Below, piece after piece: positions 4,705 through 27,929 of a stretch of DNA of 64,000 nucleotides (the stretch's first letter is position 1; each line of letters begins with the position of its first letter). Position numbers and translations under genes: made by a program. Origin of the DNA: Candidatus Bathyarchaeota archaeon. GTDB lineage: Archaea; Thermoproteota; Bathyarchaeia; Bathyarchaeales; DTEX01. The DNA lies in contig JAGTQB010000005.1 in NCBI GenBank assembly GCA_018396995.1, forward strand, positions 15,198 to 79,197, written 5' to 3'. The notes under the pieces were generated by a model. That model ran no database searches. It saw only the letters and a list, made by a program, of their open reading frames with translations, and was not told where the DNA came from.

Positions 4705-5768
4705 AGGCTCTATTAGAGGAGACGGCTAGGAAGGTTGACGCCCGCATAGAAAAATATATTCCAAGAATATTCTCTGAGGGCTCCATCCTATTCAAGGTTC
4801 TCAAGCCAGATTACCGCATAGACCTAAATGCGCTTAACAGGGCCATCAGTGAACCTATGTGGGAGTTTCTTGATAGGGGTGGTAAGAGGTGGCGCCCGGC
4901 GCTGTTCCTGCTATTATATGAGGCTTTAGGCGGAAGATCCATGGATGATGCCCTAGACTTCGCCATAATCCCAGAGGTTATACACAATGGCACTCTGATA
5001 GCAGACGACATTGAGGATTCATCTGAGATGAGGAGGGGGAAGCCATGCACATACAGGATCTACGGCATGGACATAGCCATAAACCTATCTCAAGCAATGT
5101 ACTTCCTTCCAATGATCGTCTTAAGCGATAAGCGGGATAAGATCCCAGCAGAGGTTGCTAGGAAACTATATGAGGTTTATGTCCAAGAGATGACTAAGCT
5201 CAGCCTCGGCCAAGCAATTGACATAGCGTGGCACAGAGGCCTAGTCCCAGCATTCCTCCTGAGCGAGGAGCATTACCTACAGATGTGCGCTTATAAGACT
5301 GGGACCCTGGCTAGGATGTCGGCCAAAATGGCGGCTATTTTAGCTGGGCTGGATGGCGACGCAGTTGAAAGGTTTGGAAAGTTTGCAGAATCGATCGGGG
5401 TGGCCTTCCAGATACAGGATGACATACTTGACATAACTGGTGAAGAGTTTGCTAGGGGTAAGGGGGGTCTCGGCATGGATATAACTGAGGGTAAGATAAC
5501 CCTAATGGTGATATATACGCTTAGAAGGGCTAGTGAGGAGGATAGAGGGGAGCTTCTGAGGATACTTGGAATGCACACTAGGGACGAATCCCTTAAGATG
5601 AGGGCAATTGGGATAATGCGTAAATATGGCGCCGTGGAGTACGCTAAAAGCGTTGCCTCGAAGCTAATTGAGGAGGGTTGGCGGGGCATTGAGGGGATGA
5701 TACCGGAGGGTGAGGCCAAGAGAAAAGTTAAGATGTTTGCAGAGTATCTTATTCAAAGGAGAATATAG
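4686..5768 (+). CDS. Geranylgeranyl diphosphate synthase (trans-polyprenyl synthase)
   Basis: Both aspartate-rich motifs are present: LIADDIEDSSEMRRGK and FQIQDDILD. It overlaps the fni stop. Confidence 0.85.
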   Translation: MDMPDIEALLEETARKVDARIEKYIPRIFSEGSILFKVLKPDYRIDLNALNRAISEPMWEFLDRGGKRWRPALFLLLYEALGGRSMDDALDFAIIPEVIHNGTLIADDIEDSSEMRRGKPCTYRIYGMDIAINLSQAMYFLPMIVLSDKRDKIPAEVARKLYEVYVQEMTKLSLGQAIDIAWHRGLVPAFLLSEEHYLQMCAYKTGTLARMSAKMAAILAGLDGDAVERFGKFAESIGVAFQIQDDILDITGEEFARGKGGLGMDITEGKITLMVIYTLRRASEEDRGELLRILGMHTRDESLKMRAIGIMRKYGAVEYAKSVASKLIEEGWRGIEGMIPEGEAKRKVKMFAEYLIQRRI

Positions 5769-5787
5769 TGGCGTAGAGGCTCCTAAC

Positions 5788-7560
5788 TTGAGCTCTACCA
5801 CAATAGACCTGAACAGCATTAGGGAACTTGCTAGGAAGATAGCCCTCTTAAACGCGGTCTCGTATGGTGGGAGGGCTCAGAGCAAGCCAGTTCTAGGGAA
5901 GATCCTCGGCGAGAAGCCCGACCTAAAGCCCATAGCCAAGTCTGTTGCCGCCATTGTTGAGGAGATTGTTCAAGAAGTGAACAGCTTATCGCAGGGTGAG
6001 CAGATAAGTCTCTTAAAGTCTCTCTGGCCTGAAGCCCTGGCTGAGGTGGAGACTAAGGCTAGGGGGGAGAAGGCTAGGGGGAGGGAGCTGCCACCACTAC
6101 CGAATGTGGAGAGGTATGGGCGGGTTGTCACAAGGTTTGCTCCAAACCCAGACTGCGTCCTCCATATCGGCTCAGCTAGGGCAATAGTGCTCTGCTATGA
6201 ATATGCCAGAATGTATAAGGGTAAGTTTATCCTAAGGTTCGAGGACACAGACCCGAGGTTGAAGAGGTCCTCGATAGAGTTTATGGATCTCATCAGAAAG
6301 GATCTTGAGTGGCTCGGCTGCCCGCCAGACGAGGAGTATATTCAGAGCGATAGAATAGAAATCTACTATGAATATGCTGAGAAGCTCCTCTCGGAAGGCT
6401 ACGCCTACGTCTGCACATGTAAGCCAGACCAATTTCATGCGAGGGTGATGGCTGGTGAACCATGCCCATGCAGAGCTCTCCCACCGGAAGAGCATTTGCG
6501 TAGGTGGGAGGGGATGCTTGAGAAGGTTTATGGCGAGGGGGAGGCTGTTGTACGCATAAAGACGGACTTAAAGCATCCAAACCCCGCTGTTAGGGATTGG
6601 CCTGCCTTCAGAATAATAGACACGGAAAGGTACCCTCACCCAAGGGTTGGCTCAAAGTATAGGGTTTGGCCATTATACAACTTTGCATGCGGCGTAGATG
6701 ATCACCTAATGGGTATAACGCATATTATACGCGGGAAGGAGCACCTAACCAACCAGGAGAGGCAGATATATCTTTACCGATACATGGGCTGGGAGTATCC
6801 GGAGGCAATACATTATGGTAGGCTTAAGATTGTTGGGGCGTCGCTTAGCAAGTCTAAGATTGTGCGCGGTGTCCTTGAGGGTTTATATGCCGGCTGGGAC
6901 GACCCGCGCCTAGCAACATTCCTAGCCCTCAAGCGAAGGGGGATTAGGCCGGAAGCCATAAAGAGACTTATATTGGAGATTGGCCCCAGGCCGGCGGATA
7001 TAACGATAAGCTGGGAGAACTTATACGCCCACAATAGGAAGATAATAGATCCAATAGCCAACAGGTTCTTCTTGGTCTGGGATCCGGTGAGGTTCACAGT
7101 TGAGGGTCTCTCGAAGGAGTTCACGGTGAGGGTCCCATTACACCCAGATCACCCGGAGAGGGGTGGGAGAACCTTCCATATTAAGCCAATTAATGGCGCC
7201 GCCACATTCCTAATTTCAGGAAGGGATGCTGAGCAGCTAACCCCTGGAATGGTTGTGCGCCTAATGGAGCTATTTAATGTTGAGGTTAAGGCTATAAATA
7301 AAGGCCATGTACACACAGTCTTCCACAGCGAGCCGTATAGTGAGGCTAGGAGGCTTAATGCAACATTGATACATTGGCTCCCAGAGGATCGCTGCATTCC
7401 ATGTAGGGTTATAATGCCCAACAACACCGCAGTTAGCGGGTTTGTTGAGGAGTCGATAAGGATTGCTAAGGTTGACGATGTGGTGCAGTTTGAGCGCTTC
7501 GGCTTCGCCAGAATAGACAGCATAGGCGAGGAAATAATAGCCTACTACGCCCACAAATGA
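5788..7560 (+). CDS. gltX: Glutamyl-tRNA synthetase
   Basis: Class I signatures FAPNPDCVLHIGSAR (HIGH) and LSKSK (KMSKS-like). The likely start is TTG 5788, just after the GGPPS stop; the start is approximate. Confidence 0.9.
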   Translation: MSSTTIDLNSIRELARKIALLNAVSYGGRAQSKPVLGKILGEKPDLKPIAKSVAAIVEEIVQEVNSLSQGEQISLLKSLWPEALAEVETKARGEKARGRELPPLPNVERYGRVVTRFAPNPDCVLHIGSARAIVLCYEYARMYKGKFILRFEDTDPRLKRSSIEFMDLIRKDLEWLGCPPDEEYIQSDRIEIYYEYAEKLLSEGYAYVCTCKPDQFHARVMAGEPCPCRALPPEEHLRRWEGMLEKVYGEGEAVVRIKTDLKHPNPAVRDWPAFRIIDTERYPHPRVGSKYRVWPLYNFACGVDDHLMGITHIIRGKEHLTNQERQIYLYRYMGWEYPEAIHYGRLKIVGASLSKSKIVRGVLEGLYAGWDDPRLATFLALKRRGIRPEAIKRLILEIGPRPADITISWENLYAHNRKIIDPIANRFFLVWDPVRFTVEGLSKEFTVRVPLHPDHPERGGRTFHIKPINGAATFLISGRDAEQLTPGMVVRLMELFNVEVKAINKGHVHTVFHSEPYSEARRLNATLIHWLPEDRCIPCRVIMPNNTAVSGFVEESIRIAKVDDVVQFERFGFARIDSIGEEIIAYYAHK

Positions 7561-14636: not shown

Positions 14637-16337
14637 ATGCGGCGTTTCAAGGTGTCCCTTATTTTAGACTTTTCACAAATTATCGTCTTGGTGGTGCCTG
14701 TGAGGTTAAGAGCCTTAAGCCTAACAATGGTTGTCCTAATAATAGTATTGGCTTCAGCAGCTGTTCAGGTGGCATTGGCCCTGCCAGCAGCCTCGGAGCT
14801 TAGGTTGGAGAATAAGGCGAGGGCCATGATAAATGTCGCTGCCAAGGCTGAGACTAGGGTTAAAGCTCTTGTGGAGATGATTGAGGGGAATGAAAGCATT
14901 ATGGAGGCTATTGAGGGTGCTGGGCTCTTTGAATCATATAATGAAATGAAGCTCCTCATAGATCGGGGCTCAGATCTCCTGAAGGAGGCTCACGATTCAT
15001 TTGGGGCTAGAGATTATGCTGGCGCAATTCAAAAGGCTGCTGACGCCATGAGACTATTCAGGGAGGCCTACACAGGAATCCACAGGATTCTCTGCGAGTC
15101 TGGTTTAACCCCGTTTTCAGAGGCACCGGAACTTAAAGCTCAGGGCCTATTGGTAGCCGCTAACAGATCGCTTGAGAGAATTATGCGCATCAGGTCTCTG
15201 CCAAATGCCTCTGAGGTTGAGGATCTTCTCGTGGAGGCGGAGGACCTATTAAATGGAATAGCATCCCTCCTAGATCAGGGGAACGTTTCAGCGGCGGCTC
15301 ATAATTTAGCTGAGGCAAATAAGCTTATAGCTGAAGCCTTTATCCGCCTAAGAAATAGGGCTGAGAGGACTATTCGTGTTAGGGCTGAGGGTTTCCTATT
15401 AAAATTCGAGCGGATCCGGGAAGAGTTCGCTAGGAGAATTAGGGAGGAAGTGGCTAGGAGGATTAGGGAAGAGGGCTTAAATGAGATGGAGATCCTTGAG
15501 GGGCTAAGTCTCGGAAACCTCAGCCAAACCATACAGAGCCTGCTTGAAATTGTTAGGGAGACGGAGCTCGAGAGAATAAAGGACGTTATTAGGGATATTG
15601 TTGAGGATCTAAGGGAGATAGGTAAGATAATTAGGAGTGTTAAAGAGATAGCTGCTGAGAAGTTTTTGAGGATGGTGAAGGTTGGAGATATACTTGCGAA
15701 TGCCTCAGCCCTTGAAGGGAAGATTGTGATCGTTAGGGGGATGTACTGTGGGCAGGATCCTCCTGAAGGTATTCCAGGGCCTTCAGGGGAGCCGCCTAAA
15801 AAGAATTGGTGGATAATTTCTGATGAAACTGGCTGGATTTACGTTGTTGGAGAGCCCCTTATAAGAGTTATGTATAGGCCGTTGGCTAATAGGGGTGTAG
15901 GGGTCACCGTTGTCGGTAGGGTTTTTCTTGAAGAAGATACGCCGTACATAAAGGCTATGATGGTTGCTCCATCCCCCACACCGCCGGCAACACCGAGTGA
16001 CGTGTTAAGGCTGACAATTAAAGTGGATGTGGATGGAAGAGACTGCTTGATTAAAGTTACAGTTGAGAATATTGGCGATGAGACGATAGTCTTCCCAAAC
16101 GCCGCCTATGGAGCTATTGTTGAGAGGAAGGTTGCGGGCTTCTGGATCGTCATTTACGAGCCGATATCCGCTCAGGCTCTAGTAGAGATGGAGCCCGGGG
16201 AGAGCAGAACCATCACACTTCAGCTTAAGCGTCCAATAATACAGCTGGCCCATGGAACATATAGAGTTACCGTGAGAGGCTGGCTTAAGGAGAGCAAAAT
16301 GCCAGTGGTGGCCTCAGCAGAGTTCACAATACCATAA
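14637..16337 (+). CDS. Secreted or membrane-anchored modular protein (helical region + beta domains), function unknown
   Basis: It has a hydrophobic N-terminus ending AVQVALALPAAS and about 300 aa that look helical, with the tandem EFARRIREE/VARRIREE. A PTPPATPS linker follows, then a C-terminal beta-sandwich-like domain (IKVTVENIGDETIVF). Confidence 0.5.
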   Translation: MRRFKVSLILDFSQIIVLVVPVRLRALSLTMVVLIIVLASAAVQVALALPAASELRLENKARAMINVAAKAETRVKALVEMIEGNESIMEAIEGAGLFESYNEMKLLIDRGSDLLKEAHDSFGARDYAGAIQKAADAMRLFREAYTGIHRILCESGLTPFSEAPELKAQGLLVAANRSLERIMRIRSLPNASEVEDLLVEAEDLLNGIASLLDQGNVSAAAHNLAEANKLIAEAFIRLRNRAERTIRVRAEGFLLKFERIREEFARRIREEVARRIREEGLNEMEILEGLSLGNLSQTIQSLLEIVRETELERIKDVIRDIVEDLREIGKIIRSVKEIAAEKFLRMVKVGDILANASALEGKIVIVRGMYCGQDPPEGIPGPSGEPPKKNWWIISDETGWIYVVGEPLIRVMYRPLANRGVGVTVVGRVFLEEDTPYIKAMMVAPSPTPPATPSDVLRLTIKVDVDGRDCLIKVTVENIGDETIVFPNAAYGAIVERKVAGFWIVIYEPISAQALVEMEPGESRTITLQLKRPIIQLAHGTYRVTVRGWLKESKMPVVASAEFTIP

Positions 16338-17302: not shown

Positions 17303-19072
17303 TCAGCGCTGCATACGTGAGCCAGCACCCTCATACCACGCTCTCCTTATAGTCTTGGGTCTCAGATCCGTTATGTCGGCCAGAGCTTCTAAGAGTATCT
17401 CGGTTTTAGCAAGCTTTGGTTCAGGAAGCCTGTTCCCATAATTATCGTAGCCTACATAGACCACGCATGGCTTTATCTCATATAGCCAGTCTATGAGCTC
17501 CATATCAAAGTCCAATATGGGCTCTATTACAACCACCTTCCACCTCCAATTAAGCCTGCGCATAGCCTCATAGCGCTCCCTTGGCGGCGGAGCCCTGCTT
17601 AACCCATAATCTCTGTTGGTCTCAATGGTCGCTCCCAGGACAACATTGCCGCTGAACTCATCTATAAATTCAAGGTATCTAGCAGGGTTCTTCGTTAAGA
17701 ATAGGAAGCGGGCTCTTGGCTTAGAGCGGACAACCCTCAATACGCCCTCAATCCAATCCCTCGGAACCCAAGAATTACCGCACCAAACCGGCTTACCATT
17801 TCTTCTAACATAAATTATGTGAGTGGGCACCTCGAGGCAATAGACATAACCTCTATAATCTTCATAGCCGACATAGCATCTAGTTTTAATGCCCAGCTTA
17901 TTAGTAGCCCCTATATTGCGGGCTTGGCCGACTTCAGGCATCTTATTTCTCCTACTAATTGTGACCTCATAGTGGTCGCGCCCTCTTGCCACAATCTCTC
18001 CGCCAATATTTTTATCCCGTTTTCTACCTCTCTTTCTCACTATAGATGCATATCCGCATTTCAACGCCACTTCCTGAATATCGTCGGCGAGCCTCTTGCT
18101 GGTCGTATAGGCTCTTTTACAGTTTCCTGATGACCTATTACCGTCGCCATTAATATAGGCTTCAAGCATTATATTTAGTAATCTTTTCGACAGGTTTTTC
18201 AATTCAGGGGGAATATGCTTTTCGTCTCCATGACCCAGCTTTTGAAGATATTCTATGAGCTCCCGATCTCCATAAATTGTGATCCCATCTCCGTAAGCAC
18301 AAAAGTTTTTTCCTCTACTTTCAGCGACCGCTTTTATTGTCTCAAGGGCATCTTTATATTGGGGGCTTGTGTTCTTTTTGGCAACCTTTATTCGCATCTC
18401 ATTATTTATTATCAAGACTTCATCCTCGGCTAGATAATACCCGAGGAATTTCATAAAAATGTCTACTGGTACACCCGCAATCTCATCTACCTCATAACCC
18501 TCCCAGTTTGGAAAGTCACTTCGAAACTTTATTCTCTTCCCAAGGCAGCTCTCAGCTCTGACTAAACTAAAGTCTCCAAAATTTACACCCCGCCCCCCAC
18601 GCGATGTGGTTCTCACCGCAACATAGAGGTTGTGGTCTGGAGTAACTAATAAATCTACAAAATTCGACTTTACTCTAACCATCTTTCCCTCATACCAGTA
18701 TTTTACGATTCTTGTGGGCTTACAGTAAATAACTCTATTATTGTTTGGGTCTAAGCAAGCTACCAGGTCATCATAAGTGACTTCATTAAATTTCTTCCAT
18801 CCATTATAAGTCAATACTTCAGTCTCCTCATCATAACAACCCCACATATCACCCATATCCGAGACAAATATAAACCCTTTATCCGGGAGCCTTTGCCTAA
18901 GCCTCTCAGCCACAAATGTTGGGTTAAAGCCATGCGACCTATAGGGTTCAATGCCTCTCGAGGCTAATCTAGCAGCATATTTTCTAGACCAACAGTAGAC
19001 GCAGTTATGTAGGCAGCCAACTATTGGGTTCCACGAGTAAGTTATCTCTCCAGGCGGGCCCTCATGAACCAA
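17303..19072 (-). CDS. Gp37/Gp68-family (DUF5131, COG4422) radical-SAM-like protein, intein-containing precursor
   Basis: The N-extein has WNPIVGCLHNCVYCW (CX3CX2C) and ...FVSDMGDMWG. The C-extein resumes SWVPRDWIEGVL...FLFLTKNP. The joined exteins total 234 aa, a length I recall as normal for this family. Confidence 0.85.
   Translation of the reverse strand: MVHEGPPGEITYSWNPIVGCLHNCVYCWSRKYAARLASRGIEPYRSHGFNPTFVAERLRQRLPDKGFIFVSDMGDMWGCYDEETEVLTYNGWKKFNEVTYDDLVACLDPNNNRVIYCKPTRIVKYWYEGKMVRVKSNFVDLLVTPDHNLYVAVRTTSRGGRGVNFGDFSLVRAESCLGKRIKFRSDFPNWEGYEVDEIAGVPVDIFMKFLGYYLAEDEVLIINNEMRIKVAKKNTSPQYKDALETIKAVAESRGKNFCAYGDGITIYGDRELIEYLQKLGHGDEKHIPPELKNLSKRLLNIMLEAYINGDGNRSSGNCKRAYTTSKRLADDIQEVALKCGYASIVRKRGRKRDKNIGGEIVARGRDHYEVTISRRNKMPEVGQARNIGATNKLGIKTRCYVGYEDYRGYVYCLEVPTHIIYVRRNGKPVWCGNSWVPRDWIEGVLRVVRSKPRARFLFLTKNPARYLEFIDEFSGNVVLGATIETNRDYGLSRAPPPRERYEAMRRLNWRWKVVVIEPILDFDMELIDWLYEIKPCVVYVGYDNYGNRLPEPKLAKTEILLEALADITDLRPKTIRRAWYEGAGSRMQR
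17774..18838 (-). mobile_element. Intein (355 aa) with a LAGLIDADG homing-endonuclease domain
   Basis: Block A is CYDEETEVLT (Cys1 codon at 18838-18836) and block B is LLVTPDHNLYV. The LAGLIDADG motifs are FLGYYLAEDE and LEAYINGDGN. The C-terminal end is PVWCGN followed by the +1 Ser (codon at 17773-17771). Confidence 0.85.
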
Positions 19073-20725: not shown

Positions 20726-21337
20726 GTGGGGTCTTTCGTCTTGTCTTTCCTCAAGAAGCTGGCCGAAAAGGTTACGCCTCCAAAAGTCGTCTTAAAATTG
20801 AATCTCAGTGAGAATGTCGTCTTTCTTGGCGATTATCTCAAGGGGGAACTACTTTTATCCTCGGATGAAGAATTTGACGCCGACGAGATTAGATGCGAGA
20901 TCCTTTGTGTTGAGTCAGCTAGGGTTCAGAAGCGCTTCTATGATCCGGCATTGAAGAGGGAAGTTGTTAGGGAGGTTTGGGAGTCAGCTACTTTATATTC
21001 GGCAAAGCCATGTCTCACCGGACCCATGCATATATCAAAGGGTTTCACAGCGAGCTTCCCATTCAGCATCCAAATCCCAATAACGATGAAGCCCACTTCA
21101 AAGGGGATAGATAGAAGGGTAACATGGACTATTAAGGGAGTCGTAGCAGTTGAGGGTAGGCCGGACGCGACCAGCCAAACAATTGAGTTTCATGTTGCCC
21201 AGCCGGCTGCGCCCCCAATTGTTAAGGAGAAGGAGGTTATCCGCGAGGTAGTGATGGTTCCATGTAAATATTGTGGAACACTCTTCCCGCAGACCGAGAC
21301 GGTTTGCCCCCACTGTGGTGCAAGGAGGACTATATAA
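20726..21337 (+). CDS. Spo0M/arrestin-like beta-sandwich protein with a C-terminal zinc ribbon
   Basis: The N-terminus SFLKKLAEKV..PKVVLKLNLSENVVFLGDYLKGELLLSS...DADEIRCEILCVE resembles, from memory, the opening of the SpoOM family (PF07070, arrestin-like). The C-terminus is CKYCG-x12-CPHCG. Confidence 0.6.
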   Translation: MGSFVLSFLKKLAEKVTPPKVVLKLNLSENVVFLGDYLKGELLLSSDEEFDADEIRCEILCVESARVQKRFYDPALKREVVREVWESATLYSAKPCLTGPMHISKGFTASFPFSIQIPITMKPTSKGIDRRVTWTIKGVVAVEGRPDATSQTIEFHVAQPAAPPIVKEKEVIREVVMVPCKYCGTLFPQTETVCPHCGARRTI

Positions 21338-21398
21338 ACACTGCCCACGTAGCCCTGCTATCAACTTTAGTGCAGCCGCATTTATCTCCCAGAGATTA

Positions 21399-22427
21399 TT
21401 AGGCTAGTCTCTCCCCACAATTTTGACAGAACTTTGCCCCTGGCTGAACCTCGCTCCCACATTTAGGGCACTTAATTAAGGATTGTAGTGGGGAGCCGCA
21501 ATTTATACAGAATTTTGCTCCAGGTGGATTAGTTGTTCCACACTTCGGACATTGTATACCCGCTGCCTGTAGGGGCGCTCCACAGTTCTGGCAGAACCTT
21601 GCTGTTGACGGGTTCTGGAAACCGCACTTCGGACACAATGTCAATTGTTGTGGTTGGGCCGCCGGCTGTTGGAACAGCGGTGGGATCACAGCTATGCCAG
21701 CTCCAACGGCAGCTCCTGGGCTCTTTGATAAGCTCTCAGCAGCTCTCTGAACAGTCTGCATCCTCAGAACTTCACTTGCTGAGACCCCTGTTCTCAAGAA
21801 GAATATTCTATCCCTCCATTCCGGGGTTGTATCAATACCCTCAAACTTCACGTCGATTAGCTCAAGCCCTATCCTCCTAAAAGCATCGTAGAGGGCATTC
21901 TTAACTAGGAAGCTGGTTTCATCAAGCTTTCCATAAACCTCGATTAATGAGTATTGGCTTAAGGTGTCAATTAACCTCTCATTAAAATATCCCCTAAGGA
22001 ACTCTTGGAGGCTTCCTGTTGTATACGCGCCCTGGCCGCCTACAACCTCGTTCACGAAGAGGTTTGGTTCCTCAATCCTAAACCAAAAGCTCCCATAAAA
22101 TTTTAGTGGGGCAAGCTCTTTAGTTTGGCCTTGGGAGCCAAACTTCCCCTGAAACTGCTTTAATGAAACAAATATTACTGTGGCCCTGAATGGAGCTTTA
22201 TCGTAGCCCGCTATGGCCGAGAGCACCTTTGTTAATAAGGGCAGGTTTGCTGTTGTTAGTACGTGTCTTCCAGCCCTAAAAACATCGTAGGCTTTTCCAT
22301 CCCTAAAGAAGACGGCCGCCTCATACTCGTGGACAACAAGAACATCTCCCCAGGCGATGTCTTCCCTCGGATACCTCCAAACTATATCCTCCTCCCTTGC
22401 ACCAACCCACTCAATAACCTTTGGCAT
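21399..22427 (-). CDS. SPFH-like protein of the YdjI/COG4260 type with three tandem C-terminal zinc ribbons
   Basis: The N-terminal ~250 aa (VIEWVG...IVWRYP...VLVVHEYEAAVFFRDGK...) fit the family annotated as virion core protein-like / stomatin-prohibitin with a Zn ribbon. A Q/P linker is followed by three copies of CPKCG-x10-12-FCxNCG. Confidence 0.7.
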   Translation of the reverse strand: MPKVIEWVGAREEDIVWRYPREDIAWGDVLVVHEYEAAVFFRDGKAYDVFRAGRHVLTTANLPLLTKVLSAIAGYDKAPFRATVIFVSLKQFQGKFGSQGQTKELAPLKFYGSFWFRIEEPNLFVNEVVGGQGAYTTGSLQEFLRGYFNERLIDTLSQYSLIEVYGKLDETSFLVKNALYDAFRRIGLELIDVKFEGIDTTPEWRDRIFFLRTGVSASEVLRMQTVQRAAESLSKSPGAAVGAGIAVIPPLFQQPAAQPQQLTLCPKCGFQNPSTARFCQNCGAPLQAAGIQCPKCGTTNPPGAKFCINCGSPLQSLIKCPKCGSEVQPGAKFCQNCGERLA

Positions 22428-22454
22428 CCCACATCACCTCAAAATAAACTTGCT

Positions 22455-22973
22455 TTAACCCGTCAGCCCCCTAAATATCTCCACCCTTTTATCTATCAAA
22501 TTATCTATCTCCTCTATCCTTGACAACAAGTTATCCATACACCTCCTCCACTCATCCCCGCCTGGCGCAGCCTTAACAAATTCTTCTGCACTAGCTTTTA
22601 GAGAATCCGCTCTCTCTATGAGACTTAGGTCGAGCTGGAGGGCTGCTTCAAGCTTGTCCTCCTTAACCTTGATTGCATCAAACATGCCGGCGTAGCCAGC
22701 TACAGCCCTATCTATTCGCTGTATTATCCTATCTAGACGAGACATTAAGCTATCGAGCATCCACATGTCTTCACTTGAAATCCTTTGGAGTGGGACTGGG
22801 CTCGCAAACCTTTTTCTCAGCAAATCTTTAGCAGCCTTAAGCCTGTTGACGACATCCATTCTAACTAGCCTATCGCTCTCTCTACGCAGTTCCTTCTCTT
22901 TATATCCCCGATATCCTGGAATGTAGCCAACTATCCTCTCCAGCAAGCTCCTCTCCTCATGAATCCTCTCCAT
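22455..22973 (-). CDS. All-helical (coiled-coil-like) 172-aa protein, function unknown
   Basis: The start is placed at ATG 22973 (MERIHEERSLLERIV...), preceded by GGAGAGGG. It has no TM segment and is rich in charged residues with heptad-like spacing. It overlaps the upstream 4-TM gene by 17 nt. Confidence 0.5.
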   Translation of the reverse strand: MERIHEERSLLERIVGYIPGYRGYKEKELRRESDRLVRMDVVNRLKAAKDLLRKRFASPVPLQRISSEDMWMLDSLMSRLDRIIQRIDRAVAGYAGMFDAIKVKEDKLEAALQLDLSLIERADSLKASAEEFVKAAPGGDEWRRCMDNLLSRIEEIDNLIDKRVEIFRGLTG

Positions 22974-23325
22974 CCCTCTCCTCCCCACTCCTCCAATATG
23001 CGAGTAAACCAGAGACTGCAAGAATAATAAGCAATAAACCAATTAACACTATTACATTCATGAGTTTATAGAGGGCGAAGGATAGACCGCTAATCAACAT
23101 TATTAGTCCCCAGCTCATGTAGTATAAATAGTCTTTCCGCGCCCGTAAAGCATAGGCAACAGTATAAGCTCCAAGGGGGATAATGATCCATGCAACTAAG
23201 TTTAGTAGGTTAAATGCGAGGAAGCCTCCACCATAAACTATTGCCGCCAAGCCAAGGGATATTGCAAAAACTATAAATGCGCCTACACCGTAATCCAATT
23301 CCCTGTATTTTACAAGTCTTCCCAT
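22957..23325 (-). CDS. Small membrane protein (about 4 TM)
   Basis: 122 aa with four hydrophobic stretches and an acidic tail, SGEERDGEDS. It is co-oriented and overlapping with the helical-protein gene. Confidence 0.5.
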   Translation of the reverse strand: MGRLVKYRELDYGVGAFIVFAISLGLAAIVYGGGFLAFNLLNLVAWIIIPLGAYTVAYALRARKDYLYYMSWGLIMLISGLSFALYKLMNVIVLIGLLLIILAVSGLLAYWRSGEERDGEDS

Positions 23326-23443
23326 TAAGCTGCCTTCAATAATTTGGCCTCACTAATATTTACACCTCTCTAAATATAAATCTTTTTTAAGGTTGAAGCC
23401 CTTGGATAAATCTTTAAGATGCTGGGGTGAAGGCGGAAACACC

Positions 23444-23776
23444 TTAAGCTTGCACTTTACTAATCTCTTTCTCCTCAGTAACCAGCTTAGCCCTCCATAT
23501 CTCTATGCCATAATAAGATATTTTAGAGGCTATGTAGCCGAGTAGAAACAGGAGTACTATTGGAATTATATAGGAGAGGAATTTTGAGAGGGTTATCCCA
23601 AACGCGTCGACAAGCTCCTCGCCGATAAGTGGCTGGGGCAGGGGTATTAAATTGACGTATTCTTTCAGTCTCTCTACATCAGTTAATATCAAATACCCTA
23701 GGAAATACGTGAATGCTAGGAGGGCTATGCCGAAGAGGAACACAACTATACCTGTTACCCGCCCAGCTCCCTGCAT
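23444..23776 (-). CDS. Small membrane protein (about 2 TM)
   Basis: 110 aa with two long hydrophobic segments, on the same strand as the cluster. Confidence 0.4.
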   Translation of the reverse strand: MQGAGRVTGIVVFLFGIALLAFTYFLGYLILTDVERLKEYVNLIPLPQPLIGEELVDAFGITLSKFLSYIIPIVLLFLLGYIASKISYYGIEIWRAKLVTEEKEISKVQA

Positions 23777-23927
23777 AATGACACCTAAAAGAATCTTGGG
23801 TTTAGAGCATTTAAGTCTTATTAGTCTCCTGCCAGGCTGTCGAAAAATTCGACTTTCTCTCGCAGTGCCCTATAACAATCAATAAATCGACAAACATGCC
23901 CTAAATTATGGAAGTCCATTGAGGTTT

Positions 23928-24590
23928 TTACTTATTTTTGCTAGCACGCTTAAATATAATTTTGTAGCCTCCCTCTAACAAAAGATTTTCCCAGTCGATT
24001 TTAAGTATCGCTATAACTATTGCTATTAGAAGGATGCCCGTCACAGCCATCAGAAGTAAATCCCCTTCCTCTCCGACAATAAACCATTCTATAACCTCTT
24101 TTAAGAATCTTCCGCCATAGGCTAGAATAAAGCACATACCAATCTTCCCGAGGGCGCATGGCAAAAAAACTTTTATGAGTGGCAGACGCATGATGCCGAG
24201 AGGTATTATAAGAAGGTCGTCAGGCAATGGTGTTAGTGCGAAGATAAAGACTGCTATCGCCCCGTACTTCATAAAGATCTTTACGATAGGCTCCATTTTC
24301 CTTCTTCTCTCCTCACTTATAAGAGAACCCCCATAATATCCAATTACATAGCCCAATATCTCGCCGAGAGCTGACCCCACTCCAGCGGATAGTGCCAAGA
24401 GGTTTGGTTCAAACCATCCACCCATCATAAATATCACCGCAGCATAAGGTATAGGGAGAATTATGGATAGAGATCCAAGGAAGCTGACGAGTAGTATCCC
24501 AAGGTAACCGTATTTTAAGGCTATATCTCTCAGCCAGGAAGCTATCTGAGAAAACGGAATACTTTCTAAGAGGGTTTCAATAGTTTCCAT
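23928..24590 (-). CDS. DedA / VTT (SNARE-associated) family membrane protein
   Basis: GYLGILLVSFLGSLSIILPIPY..., GSALGEILGYVIGYYGG and LTPLPDDLLIIPLGIM match the DedA pattern. Confidence 0.8.
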   Translation of the reverse strand: METIETLLESIPFSQIASWLRDIALKYGYLGILLVSFLGSLSIILPIPYAAVIFMMGGWFEPNLLALSAGVGSALGEILGYVIGYYGGSLISEERRRKMEPIVKIFMKYGAIAVFIFALTPLPDDLLIIPLGIMRLPLIKVFLPCALGKIGMCFILAYGGRFLKEVIEWFIVGEEGDLLLMAVTGILLIAIVIAILKIDWENLLLEGGYKIIFKRASKNK

Positions 24591-24678: not shown

Positions 24679-27375
24679 ATGCGGCAGAAAACATTGGAAG
24701 AGTTCTGTGGGCTGATTAAGCCCCCTAAGAATAATGCTTTAAGGACAGGGGAGAGCGCTAGTGGTGATGAGGCTTCTGAGACGGGTGGGAGCGAGCTTCC
24801 TGCCGCTAAGCCTGATGAAGCAATAGATGTTGCGCCAAGTAATCTCCCACCGTCCTACATTGTATCCGTAGGATATAGCGGCTCTAAGGGTGTTGCCTAT
24901 GTGAAATTATATGAGCCAGTTTCACAGCGCATCTACCTATGGTATGATAACACCGGTCATAAACCATACCTCCTCACAAATGTCCCACCGGAGACTCTAG
25001 AGAAAATTGACAGAGTTGTTTATCATCCAGGCTTTGACCACATTGAGGTTGTTGAGAAATACGATGCCCTCCTCGATCAAACGATAAAAGTTACGAAGGT
25101 TGTTGCTAAGGACCCGCTGGCGATAGGTGGGCGGCCTAGGGGCTGTTTAAGAGATATTATTCCCGAAGAGCTCTCAGTGACGTTTGGGGATAGTGGGGTT
25201 AAGGTTTGGGAGTCAGCCATCAAATATCACCAGTGCTACATTTATGACAAGGGTTTGCAGCCAGGCATGCCATATATAATCAGGAATGGCGAGTTAATAT
25301 CGTATCTCGATGAAACAGCTAAAAGAAATGTTGCAAGGGTTCTCGAGTTCCTCTCAAAGGATACCCCTAAGGACTTCTTACCGTATCTTGAAATGTGGGC
25401 TAGGCTACTGGAGTATCCAGCTCCGAAGATGCGCCGAGTGGCCCTTGATATAGAAGTTTACTCCCCCATTGCAACTAGGGTTCCAGATCCTGAGGAAGCC
25501 TCTCAGCCAGTAATATGCGCCTCACTAGTCTCTTCTGATGGGGTTAAGCGTGTTCTATTGCTTAAGCGTGAGGGTGTTGAGGAGGGTGACTTAAATTTAC
25601 CGCCTGACGTAATAGTCGAGTTCTATAATTCTGATAGGGATCTGCTCCGCTCCATCTTTAGTGTTCTGGACGAGTATCCATTTGTCATAACGTTTAATGG
25701 AGATGACTTTGACTTAAACTATCTATATCATAGGGCTAAGAATCTGGGCTTCTCAAAAAAGGATGTTCCAATAGAAAGGAGAGAAAAGATATGTTCGCTG
25801 AGGTACGGTGTGCACATAGATCTTTACAGGTTCTTTCTCAACAGATCGATTCAGATTTACGCTTTTGGACAGAAGTATCGAAACGTAACTCTAGACGAAG
25901 TTGCTAAGGCCCTTCTAGGGAAGTCAAAGCTCGTCTTAACAAAGCCTGTGTCAGAGCTCTCTTATGGGGAGCTAGCCCGCTACTGCCTAAATGATGCCGA
26001 GATAACCCTGGAATTAACCTCCTATAATGATGACCTGGTAATGAAGCTCCTACTTATTCTGACTAGGATAAGTAGGATGCCAATGGAAGATGTTAGTAGG
26101 CAGGGTGTCTCAAAGTGGATTCGTAGCTTCATGTATTATGAGCACCGAAGAAGGAATATGTTAATACCCAATAGTGAGGACATAATCGCTGCTAGGGGGA
26201 CAACTGTAACAAAGGCGATAATTAAGGGCAAAAAGTACATGGGTGCCATAGTCGTTAAACCAGTTCCAGGAGTACACTTTAATGTAGCCGTAATGGACTT
26301 CCAAAGCCTATATCCATCTATAATCAAGGTTTATAATCTTGGCTATCAGACTGTTAGGTGCGTCCACGAGGAATGTAGGGATAATCTTGTCCCAGAGACG
26401 CCCCATTGGATCTGCAAGAAACATAAATCCCTTGAAAGCATGCTAATAGGCTCCCTTAGGGATCTTAGGGTCAAGTGGTATAAACCTAAGTCTAAGGATA
26501 AAACCCTTCCAGATGAGCAGAGAGAATGGTACAATGTCATACAGAGCGCACTTAAAGTAATATTAAATGCCTCTTACGGGGTCTTCGGTGCAGAAATATT
26601 TGACTTATATTGCCCACCAGCGGCTGAGGCTATAGCGGCAATAGGGAGAAATATAATAACGCTTACCATAAATAAGGCGCGTGAACTCGGCATTGAAGTG
26701 ATCTACGGCGACACGGATAGTCTCTTCCTAAAAAATCCATCCTCTGAAAAAATTAGGGAGCTTTCTGACTGGGCGGAGAAGACCCTGGGCATGGAGTTAG
26801 ACGTAGATAAATATTACCGTTATGTAGTCTTCAGCTACAGGAAGAAAAACTATCTTGGGGTCCTGGATGATGGGAGTGTAGACGTTAAGGGTCTCACTGG
26901 GAAGAAGAGGCACATACCTCCCTTCATAAAGAGGTACTTTGATGCAATTGAGGACATATTAAGCCGCGTTAAGACACCCAGCGAATTCGAGAGGGCGAAG
27001 AGGGATATTGAGCGCACAATACGTGAATGCTACATGAAGCTGAAGAATAGAGAGTGGGAGGATATGAACGACCTCGCCTTTGAAGTCGTCCTTGGAAAAC
27101 CTCCGGAAGCCTACATAAAGACAACACCACAACATGTTAAGGCAGCGCTCATGCTACAGGCTAGGGGAATAGAGTTGAAGGCCGGAGACACGATAAGGTT
27201 CGTGAAGACCATTAAAGAGCCATTCGTTAAACCAGTTCAGCTGGCAACGTCTAAGGAGATAGACGTCGATAAATACATTAACTACCTTAGATCAACCTTT
27301 GATCAGATACTTGATGCATTAAACCTAGAATTTGATGAAATAGTTGGGTTAACAAGGCTTGAGTACTTCATATAA
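24679..27375 (+). CDS. polB: Family B DNA polymerase
   Basis: Exo motifs VALDIEV, FNGDDFDLNYL and YCLNDAEIT. Pol motifs DFQSLYPSII, KVILNASYGVFG and YGDTDSLF. Confidence 0.95.
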   Translation: MRQKTLEEFCGLIKPPKNNALRTGESASGDEASETGGSELPAAKPDEAIDVAPSNLPPSYIVSVGYSGSKGVAYVKLYEPVSQRIYLWYDNTGHKPYLLTNVPPETLEKIDRVVYHPGFDHIEVVEKYDALLDQTIKVTKVVAKDPLAIGGRPRGCLRDIIPEELSVTFGDSGVKVWESAIKYHQCYIYDKGLQPGMPYIIRNGELISYLDETAKRNVARVLEFLSKDTPKDFLPYLEMWARLLEYPAPKMRRVALDIEVYSPIATRVPDPEEASQPVICASLVSSDGVKRVLLLKREGVEEGDLNLPPDVIVEFYNSDRDLLRSIFSVLDEYPFVITFNGDDFDLNYLYHRAKNLGFSKKDVPIERREKICSLRYGVHIDLYRFFLNRSIQIYAFGQKYRNVTLDEVAKALLGKSKLVLTKPVSELSYGELARYCLNDAEITLELTSYNDDLVMKLLLILTRISRMPMEDVSRQGVSKWIRSFMYYEHRRRNMLIPNSEDIIAARGTTVTKAIIKGKKYMGAIVVKPVPGVHFNVAVMDFQSLYPSIIKVYNLGYQTVRCVHEECRDNLVPETPHWICKKHKSLESMLIGSLRDLRVKWYKPKSKDKTLPDEQREWYNVIQSALKVILNASYGVFGAEIFDLYCPPAAEAIAAIGRNIITLTINKARELGIEVIYGDTDSLFLKNPSSEKIRELSDWAEKTLGMELDVDKYYRYVVFSYRKKNYLGVLDDGSVDVKGLTGKKRHIPPFIKRYFDAIEDILSRVKTPSEFERAKRDIERTIRECYMKLKNREWEDMNDLAFEVVLGKPPEAYIKTTPQHVKAALMLQARGIELKAGDTIRFVKTIKEPFVKPVQLATSKEIDVDKYINYLRSTFDQILDALNLEFDEIVGLTRLEYFI

Positions 27376-27929
27376 ATTGTCGTGGGCTTGCACTTAAAGT
27401 GCCTAACCTATTAGAGCCTAAGGGCTCTAATAGGTTGACGACTCGTTTAAAGGGTATGAGGACATTCTGCTCATTTATTATTATCTCTCCAATCTTCAGC
27501 TCTCCGCGCTTCCATGAGTCAACAAACTTCCTTTGATAGCTTCCATAGATGAACCTTAAATGAACAAATTTTCTGGGCTTAACTGAAATCCTTAAAGTTT
27601 CACCGTCAAACTTATAGGCTAAGGGAGAGACCTTCACGAATAGCCTTTTTAACCTCTGGAACTTCTCCGCCCCTCTTTCTCCAAGTCTCAACGACACCAA
27701 TTGCCACTCTGTAAGCCGTAACGTAAAAGCTGGTTTGGTATAGATACTTACTTTTAAGCTCCATACACATGGCGTTATGGATTGATTTAAGCGATGTAGT
27801 TCTTAATTCTATAAGAAGCTTCTTTATACAAGCGTTAACGATTTCTCGATAATCGGAGAGCAACTTATCTATCTCGGCGCTTCTCTCATATTTGAAGGGA
27901 ACTGACTGCACAACCTCTAAGGACATCAA
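27368..27929 (-). pseudogene. TnpB relic (N-terminal third, frameshifted, truncated against the polB 3' end)
   Basis: Two overlapping ORFs: MMSLEVVQSVPFKYERSAEIDKLLSDYREIVN..., then ...YKFDGETLRISVKPRKFVHLRFIYGSYQRKFVDSWKRGELKIGEIIINEQNVLIPFK. Confidence 0.6.

Follow-up and report, generated by a model that had tools for sequence, protein, structure and literature searches.

The 64,000-nucleotide (nt) stretch of a Candidatus Bathyarchaeota genome analyzed here (contig JAGTQB010000005.1, positions 15,198 to 79,197; called the window in the following) contains six neighboring genes, which encode an SPFH protein with zinc ribbons (SPFH-ZnR), an all-helical protein, an arrestin-like protein, two small proteins with four or two transmembrane (TM) helices, and a DedA protein. 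An earlier reading of the bare sequence (the sequence-only reading) had proposed that all of them belong to one system for membrane remodeling or membrane stress. Comparison with related archaeal loci demonstrated that the real module is smaller than six genes and consists of the genes for the four-TM (4-TM), the helical and the SPFH-ZnR protein. The arrestin-like protein with its zinc ribbon is a genuine but facultative fourth member, and the helical protein, which is not supported as a relative of PspA or ESCRT-III, belongs to a large undescribed family.

Gene order in the window and in related archaea

All six open reading frames (ORFs) proved to lie where the sequence-only reading had placed them, and the arrangement it had described was confirmed too: an overlap of 17 nt, a gap of 27 nt and an arrestin-like gene in convergent orientation. 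The genes and the signals in front of them are the following.

22957-23325, minus strand: 4-TM gene, first gene of the operon; product of 122 amino acids (aa)
22455-22973, minus strand: helical gene, second gene of the operon; soluble product of 172 aa
21399-22427, minus strand: SPFH-ZnR gene, third gene of the operon; soluble product of 342 aa
20726-21337, plus strand: arrestin-like gene, facultative partner in convergent orientation; ORF of 203 aa
23444-23776, minus strand: two-TM (2-TM) gene, neighbor outside the conserved module
23928-24590, minus strand: DedA/VTT-domain gene, neighbor outside the conserved module
23373-23380, minus strand: TATA-box-like element TTTATATT, candidate operon promoter as read from the sequence
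22433-22440: Shine-Dalgarno-like sequence GAGGTGAT just before the ATG of the SPFH gene, likewise a sequence reading

The overlap of 17 nt is located between the 4-TM and the helical gene, the 27-nt spacer between the helical and the SPFH gene holds GAGGTGAT, and 61 nt separate the stop codons of the convergent SPFH and arrestin-like genes. Mechanically the helical ORF reaches a TTG at 23042; the ATG at 22973, which is immediately preceded by GGAGG on its 5' side, agrees with the homologues. The 2-TM and the 4-TM gene are 118 nt apart and the distance from the DedA to the 2-TM gene is 151 nt; both gaps contain TATA-like elements of their own. In the shorter gap this is TTTATATT, about 50 nt 5' of the 4-TM start codon, which may be the archaeal promoter of the three-gene operon. 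Among the three genes the 4-TM gene alone has such a box in front of it, and this position, taken together with the Shine-Dalgarno-like sequences before the helical and SPFH starts, would fit a separate transcription unit of three genes. Hydropathy analysis revealed four hydrophobic segments in the 4-TM protein, two in the 2-TM protein and four in DedA, and none in the arrestin-like, SPFH or helical proteins.

We collected 85 loci from Bathyarchaeia, Nezhaarchaeota, Aigarchaeota/Terraquivivens and metagenome-assembled genomes (MAGs) assigned to 'Nitrososphaeria'. They were obtained by context look-ups and by a scan of species-representative genomes with an alignment of 25 sequences, and were searched with the window proteins as queries. 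A homologue of the helical protein is present in all 85 loci. The SPFH-ZnR gene follows directly downstream of it in 82 of the 85, the three remaining loci all being truncated by contig ends, and a 4-TM homologue is located directly upstream of the helical gene in 80 of the 85. The junction between the 4-TM and the helical gene varies from -34 to +44 nt, with an overlap of 4 nt as the commonest form; that between the helical and the SPFH gene measures 0-94 nt or contains one inserted gene. The loci are surrounded by varied housekeeping and core genes. Median identity to the window protein is 78% for the SPFH protein (across 81 genomes; 84% to an Aigarchaeota MAG), 74% for the arrestin-like, 62% for the helical and 46% for the 4-TM protein, and the values for the SPFH and the helical protein reflect very strong purifying selection. 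The gene order thus bore out that part of the earlier proposal in which a small TM protein and a soluble, helical one were joined to an SPFH-ZnR protein in one conserved module.

The larger, six-part proposal stood only in part, with a conserved core triad and a facultative arrestin-like gene, whereas DedA and the 2-TM protein drop out. Homologues of DedA were detected in three of the 85 loci, namely the two closest relatives and one weak match 5 kb away from the triad. Those of the 2-TM protein are limited to two loci, the closest relatives L006 and L007, and the spacing differs there. As both genes are confined to the closest relatives they are neighbors by descent and not members of the module, and the synteny rules them out as such. 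In L007 (5422-6516), with a helical protein 76% identical to that of the window, the 4-TM gene is gone, and a spacer of about 260 nt separates the helical gene from a 2-TM homologue on its upstream side. One small TM protein could be able to stand in for the other, or a simple gene loss could have occurred.

The arrestin-like gene was found next to the triad in 18 of the 85 loci: 13 times downstream and convergent as in the window, four times upstream on the opposite strand and once downstream in the same direction. In a locus from Methanomethylicia (L170) the genes are co-directional in the order arrestin-ZnR, 4-TM, helical and SPFH-ZnR. More distant arrestin homologues may stand alone (L171, L172).

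Other loci from Bathyarchaeia encode different zinc-ribbon proteins. A ZnR protein of 250 aa is encoded upstream of the 4-TM gene in 40 of the 85 loci, where it takes the place of the arrestin-like protein; the two were never found together (0/85). A 415-aa paralogue is inserted between the helical and the SPFH gene in 21 loci, 17 of which also contain the 250-aa protein. Examples of the two genes are L005:4845-5597 (250 aa) and L005:6537-7784 (415 aa). Both proteins end in a sequence like WFIxYxxxGxxYxxxxDGxxGxxxxG and are homologous to ZnR-domain-TM proteins of a Thermoplasmata locus (L174; hhalign 94%, BLASTP 6e-13). We liken these accessory proteins to YdjG of Bacillus subtilis on the basis of its published architecture (zinc ribbon, beta-rich domain, with or without TM); proteins of this architecture occur in 44 of the 85 loci and in Thermoplasmata. 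A tblastn search of the window with a ZnR accessory protein gave no match. The 415-aa protein showed only weak ribbon matches to Pfam, NCBIfam and PDB profiles, and a homology search with the Thermoplasmata ZnR-TM proteins returned Thermoplasmata proteins alone.

Properties of the encoded proteins

The SPFH protein passes the Pfam model Band_7_1 (PF13421) with 95.6 bits against a cut-off of 24 (E=4e-27, profile positions 1-198 of 211). Within its 342 aa the SPFH domain comprises aa 16-203 (nt 21819-22382); a low-complexity linker rich in P, Q and A is located at aa ~245-262, and three C-terminal zinc ribbons with Pfam matches to Zn_Ribbon_1/DZR extend over aa 265-341 (nt 21405-21635). Its earlier description as a YdjI-like SPFH protein with three zinc ribbons was therefore correct. 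Unlike flotillins, stomatins and HflK/C, the protein has no TM anchor (no hydrophobic 19-mer above threshold); YdjI is also described as soluble (PMC8581546).

For the helical protein, neither the window protein nor 120 members of its family matched any Pfam family. The window protein has 100% identity to a protein from a Candidatus Bathyarchaeia MAG. The family is large, with 934 clusters at 50% identity (E<=1e-3), and its members have a length of about 170 aa. Two motifs are conserved, IPG[YF]xGYKEKExRRExDxLxR (residues 18-38) and AxxGYxGxFDxxKVxExxLDxxYxxD (residues 90-115), and residues Y24, D34 and R38 are invariant. The AlphaFold2 model (pLDDT 89.8, pTM 0.85) consists of an N-terminal helix and a four-helix bundle, and from its topology both motifs are likely to sit in loops at one end of the bundle.

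The sequence-only reading had suggested that this protein could be an unrecognised PspA/ESCRT-III-like subunit or, alternatively, an adaptor. None of the 120 family members matched PspA_IM30 or Snf7 of Pfam at E<=0.01, and an hhalign comparison of the family profile with a PspA resulted in a probability of 0.2%. A Foldseek search of the model against PDB revealed no match at E<=1e-3 and no PspA, Vipp1, CHMP or ESCRT-III entry among the top 50. The fold search against BFVD yielded no match either, with a phage PspA reaching a TM-score of only 0.31. The model is a compact bundle and lacks the long alpha1-alpha2 hairpin of the PspA/ESCRT-III fold; its best geometric match in PDB is the soluble domain of Chlamydia IncA (TM-score 0.6, E=0.14). 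In view of the negative Pfam, hhalign and Foldseek results, and of the distant loci described below in which the helical gene coexists with a genuine PspA gene, the idea of a cryptic PspA/ESCRT-III protein is unsupported, whereas a role as an adaptor subunit is compatible with the data.

A full-length alignment was obtained with NCBIfam NF047596 (LIMLP_15305), to which helical residues 2-167 align at model positions 9-173 of 175 with E=6e-13. Such an alignment places both in the same superfamily. With 49 bits the protein falls far short of the cut-off for equivalogs (210), and by this sequence comparison it is related to LIMLP_15305 without being an equivalog. That model covers a narrow, functionally uncharacterized group from Leptospira. 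Compared by phmmer with the sequences in PDB, the three soluble proteins matched only a generic double-ribbon protein and L32 ribbons.

The 4-TM protein is an integral membrane protein almost without soluble loops and matches no model of Pfam, NCBIfam or PADLOC; PADLOC gave no match at the locus as a whole. The family assignment of DedA held, with a match to the VTT domain PF09335 at 54.5 bits (Pfam cut-off 33.9). The 2-TM protein reached 15 bits with PspC-TM (PF22571), which is below the Pfam cut-off of 27.

The arrestin-like protein passes the Pfam model Arrestin_N with 29.4 bits against a cut-off of 24.9, and most of its homologues carry a precomputed match to PF00339. Its AlphaFold2 model (pLDDT 91.4) begins with a helix, continues with a single beta-sandwich and ends in a ribbon, arranged as follows.

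aa 2-16: amphipathic helix (moderately amphipathic, muH 0.50)
aa 21-158: N-lobe sandwich
aa 177-200: zinc ribbon

The ribbon is sub-threshold (18 bits against 27), and its pattern C-x2-C-G-x9-C-x2-C-G is the same as in the ribbons of the SPFH protein. Foldseek aligned the model with the N-lobe of ARRDC3 (4r7x, E=3.5e-10) and with Spo0M from B. subtilis (5cl2, E=3.9e-8), and further with TXNIP-N, Vps26 and beta-arrestins, with 194 matches at E<=1e-3 altogether. The two-lobe architecture of arrestins was not found; a single sandwich of about 140 aa is followed by a linker and the zinc ribbon. The single sandwich and the Foldseek matches identify the protein as a single-lobe member of the arrestin clan. 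It shares the beta-sandwich with ARRDC3, TXNIP, Vps26 and Spo0M by hidden Markov model and by structure, but differs from them by having one lobe instead of two and, in addition, the amphipathic helix and the zinc ribbon. The earlier assignment as a Spo0M/arrestin-like protein with a ribbon was upheld by Arrestin_N and by the fold match to Spo0M, but not by the Spo0M family model PF07070, where the score of 13.3 bits is below the cut-off of 23. Nearly all homologues measure 196-198 aa and align over 97% of the window ORF of 203 aa, so that the real start is probably about five codons downstream of the GTG at 20726.

Distant relatives, known systems and the predicted complex

The pairing of the helical gene with a Band_7_1 gene is kept at 27-40% identity in a number of distant loci (L086, L173, L174 and L089) and in a distant bacterial clade. 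In L086 a helical member with 27% identity is followed by a Band_7_1-ZnR gene. The cultured Pyrobaculum ferrireducens (L173; CP003098.1, 682046-692633) encodes the helical protein WP_014288072.1 in front of Band_7_1 (genes at 5001-5588 and 5677-7014); its SPFH protein has two C-terminal TM helices and no ribbons, and no 4-TM gene is located upstream. In a Thermoplasmata MAG (L174) the helical gene precedes a Band_7_1-ZnR gene and three genes for ZnR proteins. L089 (7001-8667) encodes a helical protein that has a ribbon of its own at the N-terminus, together with an SPFH partner that has SHOCT at its C-terminal end. Anchors and ribbons thus move between adjacent genes across lineages, as would be expected of the subunits of one complex.

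The distant bacterial clade was sampled by a metagenome scan seeded with a subfamily about 30% identical to the window protein, which yielded 80 loci and, with four context look-ups, 84 in total. In 78 of these loci no contig end interrupts the region, and in 72 of the 78 the helical gene has Band_7_1 as its direct downstream neighbor; besides Band_7_1 no other conserved neighbor was found in this clade. Two distant loci contain a genuine PspA gene between the helical and the SPFH gene: a Chloroflexia contig (L087) with the order helical, PspA_IM30 (E=6e-42) and Band_7_1-ZnR, and a bacterial MAG (L088) in which a helical-DUF4178 fusion is followed by PspA and Band_7_1-ZnR. DUF4178 has been reported in phage-shock-protein (PSP)-polyamine operons (PMC11237479). 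These operons confirmed the link to PspA-YdjGHI which the sequence-only reading had drawn from the parts list. Since the helical protein stands beside PspA in both, it is an additional partner and not a substitute for PspA. Upstream of the helical gene, the bacterial loci L086-L088 encode a 174-aa protein with a C-terminal zinc ribbon (e.g. L088:6440-6964). It shows a marginal match to a PCI/winged helix-turn-helix (wHTH)-like domain (21.5 bits, cut-off 22) and may be a regulator.

In the PspA-YdjGHI system, also called SamGHI, the SPFH protein is brought to the membrane by its partners and stabilizes PspA foci. The operon pspA-ydjGHI of Firmicutes couples PspA to a band-7-ZnR protein (PMC11237479), and YdjI/SamI requires the membrane proteins YdjG/H and recruits PspA (PMC8581546; bioRxiv 10.64898/2026.02.06.704340). 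Judged by PF13421 and by architecture, the archaeal SPFH protein shares with YdjI the anchorless cytosolic SPFH domain, the low-complexity linker and the C-terminal ribbon. YdjI also depends on separately encoded membrane proteins, and its operon contains ZnR accessory proteins as do the archaeal loci. Because of the same SPFH architecture the analogy to YdjGHI is well founded, and it is extended by the PspA genes in the distant relatives L087 and L088.

There are also clear differences. PspA (PF04012) is absent from the window and from the 85 archaeal loci. Neither YdjG (zinc ribbon, NTF2/YpeB-like domain, TM) nor YdjH (TPM) was found in the window, which instead encodes a minimal, unrelated 4-TM protein. 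YdjI has one ribbon and the archaeal protein has three, and the window locus is further set apart by its arrestin-fold partner and its archaeal host. The archaeal locus has in addition a near-obligatory four-helix-bundle subunit, and we know of no such subunit described for the Bacillus operon.

A second known system is represented by the 'Meth_adaptin' loci of methanogens (Makarova et al. 2024, PMC10936438), which likewise encode an SPFH protein of archaea that bears a zinc ribbon, in a conserved neighborhood interpreted as related to membrane trafficking or remodeling. There the defining genes are those for Vps4, ESCRT-III and adaptin-appendage proteins, none of which is present here, and the SPFH protein contains a coiled coil (PMC10936438), which is lacking in the one of the window. 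That paper mentions neither an arrestin nor the helical family (PMC10936438). The literature that was searched describes neither the helical family nor its pairing with Band_7_1, nor an archaeal locus that combines SPFH and arrestin-like genes. SPFH modules of the YdjI/SamI type are already known; the helical family and the arrestin pairing are the two undescribed components.

By analogy to YdjGHI/SamGHI, we lean modestly towards the view that the operon of 4-TM, helical and SPFH-ZnR gene encodes one membrane-associated SPFH scaffold complex. What the data show are the genes present, the folds and families of their products and the conservation of their order; from these we infer a physical complex, its contact topology and its physiological role as follows. 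The small 4-TM protein, as a membrane anchor or receptor, would hold the SPFH-ZnR scaffold on the cytoplasmic side of the membrane. The dedicated partner or adaptor of the SPFH protein would be the four-helix-bundle protein, with the IPGYRGY and GYAGxFD loops as a putative contact surface. The C-terminal zinc ribbons may be protein-protein docking modules for accessory ZnR proteins. In loci of the window type the arrestin-N-lobe protein, which has a ribbon of this type as well as its amphipathic N-terminal helix, could serve as an extra adaptor, and the YdjG-like ZnR proteins would replace it in other lineages. Following the example of SamGHI/PspA, the complex might organize or monitor regions of the membrane under stress, and an effector such as PspA, CdvB/ESCRT-III or another protein, if there is any, would be encoded elsewhere.

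Several observations weigh against a scaffold complex of this kind. The 4-TM gene is missing in five of the 85 loci (L007, L049 and L079 were checked), and in six distant loci the helical gene has no adjacent SPFH gene. The SPFH protein lacks the long coiled coil that is used by cage-forming SPFH proteins. Nothing but generic four-helix bundles resembles the model of the helical protein, so that its fold offers no hint of a function. Neither a PspA homologue nor an ESCRT-III gene was found in the 64-kb window, and consequently the effector is missing.

The position of the helical gene beside a YdjI-type SPFH gene is that of PspA in B. subtilis, and the protein is all-helical and of roughly similar size. 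A cryptic PspA/ESCRT-III-like remodeling subunit recruited by the SPFH protein is nevertheless highly improbable, given the profile comparisons (0/120 in Pfam, 0.2% with hhalign), the negative Foldseek search, the compact bundle and the genuine PspA gene alongside the helical gene in L087 and L088. Other SPFH subfamilies typically come with a dedicated operon partner and regulate proteases. A chaperone-like role of band-7 proteins has been discussed (PMC11237479), and a Peptidase_M48 gene is located about 2 kb upstream in the Bathyarchaeia locus L005. A quality-control pair of the HflK/C-FtsH or stomatin-NfeD kind, in which the SPFH protein corrals or regulates a membrane protease or another client and the helical protein serves regulation or substrate recognition, would agree with this background; we regard it as unlikely, because no protease or NfeD gene is conserved among about 170 loci and the SPFH protein has neither a TM anchor nor a cage-forming coiled coil. 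A device primarily for signaling or transcription control, with the zinc ribbons as binding sites for nucleic acid or a regulator and the membrane part as a sensor, is distinctly unlikely as well. The archaeal operon encodes no DNA-binding domain, and ribbons of the short DZR/Zn_Ribbon_1 type are common as protein-interaction or membrane-proximal modules. What speaks for such a device is the global, PspA-independent change of transcription upon loss of SamI in B. subtilis (bioRxiv 10.64898/2026.02.06.704340), as well as the wHTH-like match of the zinc-ribbon protein in L086-L088, which is marginal (21.5 vs 22).

That all six genes, DedA and the 2-TM gene among them, form one membrane-stress island is very unlikely on account of the rare occurrence of these two (3/85 and 2/85) and of the 118- and 151-nt gaps with separate TATA-like elements, even though the genes are close to each other on the same strand, the 2-TM protein has a weak PspC-TM-like match, and L007 has a 2-TM homologue directly upstream of the helical gene where the 4-TM gene is missing. 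An anti-virus defense system or a cargo module of mobile elements could be considered because some conflict systems contain band-7 and ZnR domains and because an integrase and a Prim-Pol are encoded a few kb away in L001. No homologue of the helical protein was found on 72,556 plasmids, and there was neither a PADLOC match nor a viral structural match. With conservation at the level of housekeeping genes and varied core genes as neighbors, this reading is extremely improbable, and we rejected defense on the PADLOC and plasmid results.

The scaffold complex could be part of a more general picture, in which the helical family is an unrecognized, near-obligate subunit of all Band_7_1 SPFH complexes in both Archaea and Bacteria, and archaea related to Thermoproteota recruited the single-lobe arrestin-ZnR protein to this ancient complex as a membrane-cargo adaptor; we consider this generalization rather unlikely. 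If true, it would describe a prokaryotic arrestin-SPFH device for membrane sorting or surveillance that works without PspA and foreshadows the eukaryotic adaptors of the arrestin/Vps26 type. SPFH proteins are universal and their mechanisms are poorly understood; B. subtilis is the only organism in which the anchorless YdjI/SamI subtype is known to have been studied. The occurrence of the helical family beside Band_7_1 in Bathyarchaeia, Pyrobaculum, Thermoplasmata and Chloroflexi, at times with PspA in between, points to a missing subunit of the PSP-related machinery for membrane stress, for which the cultured P. ferrireducens with its helical-Band_7_1 dyad could offer an experimental handle. 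The arrestin-like partner provides a genomic context for prokaryotic proteins of the arrestin clan, whose function is essentially unknown, and this context bears on the origin of eukaryotic trafficking adaptors. For annotation, the DedA and the 2-TM gene are to be pruned from the module.

Other features of the window

On the plus strand, positions 24679-27375 encode a family B DNA polymerase, which is divergent from the DedA gene over a spacer of 88 nt; about 170 aa before its exonuclease domain match no Pfam model. On the minus strand (27368-27929) there follow ORFs of 110 and 105 aa that overlap in different frames and have no Pfam match; together they look like a frameshifted or degraded gene. 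A 566-aa ORF on the plus strand at 14637-16337 has no Pfam family at E<=1e-3. The minus-strand ORF of 589 aa at 17303-19072 contains two halves of DUF5131 (PF07505) with a weak radical-SAM N-terminus in Pfam; it is split by an intein with a LAGLIDADG homing-endonuclease domain.

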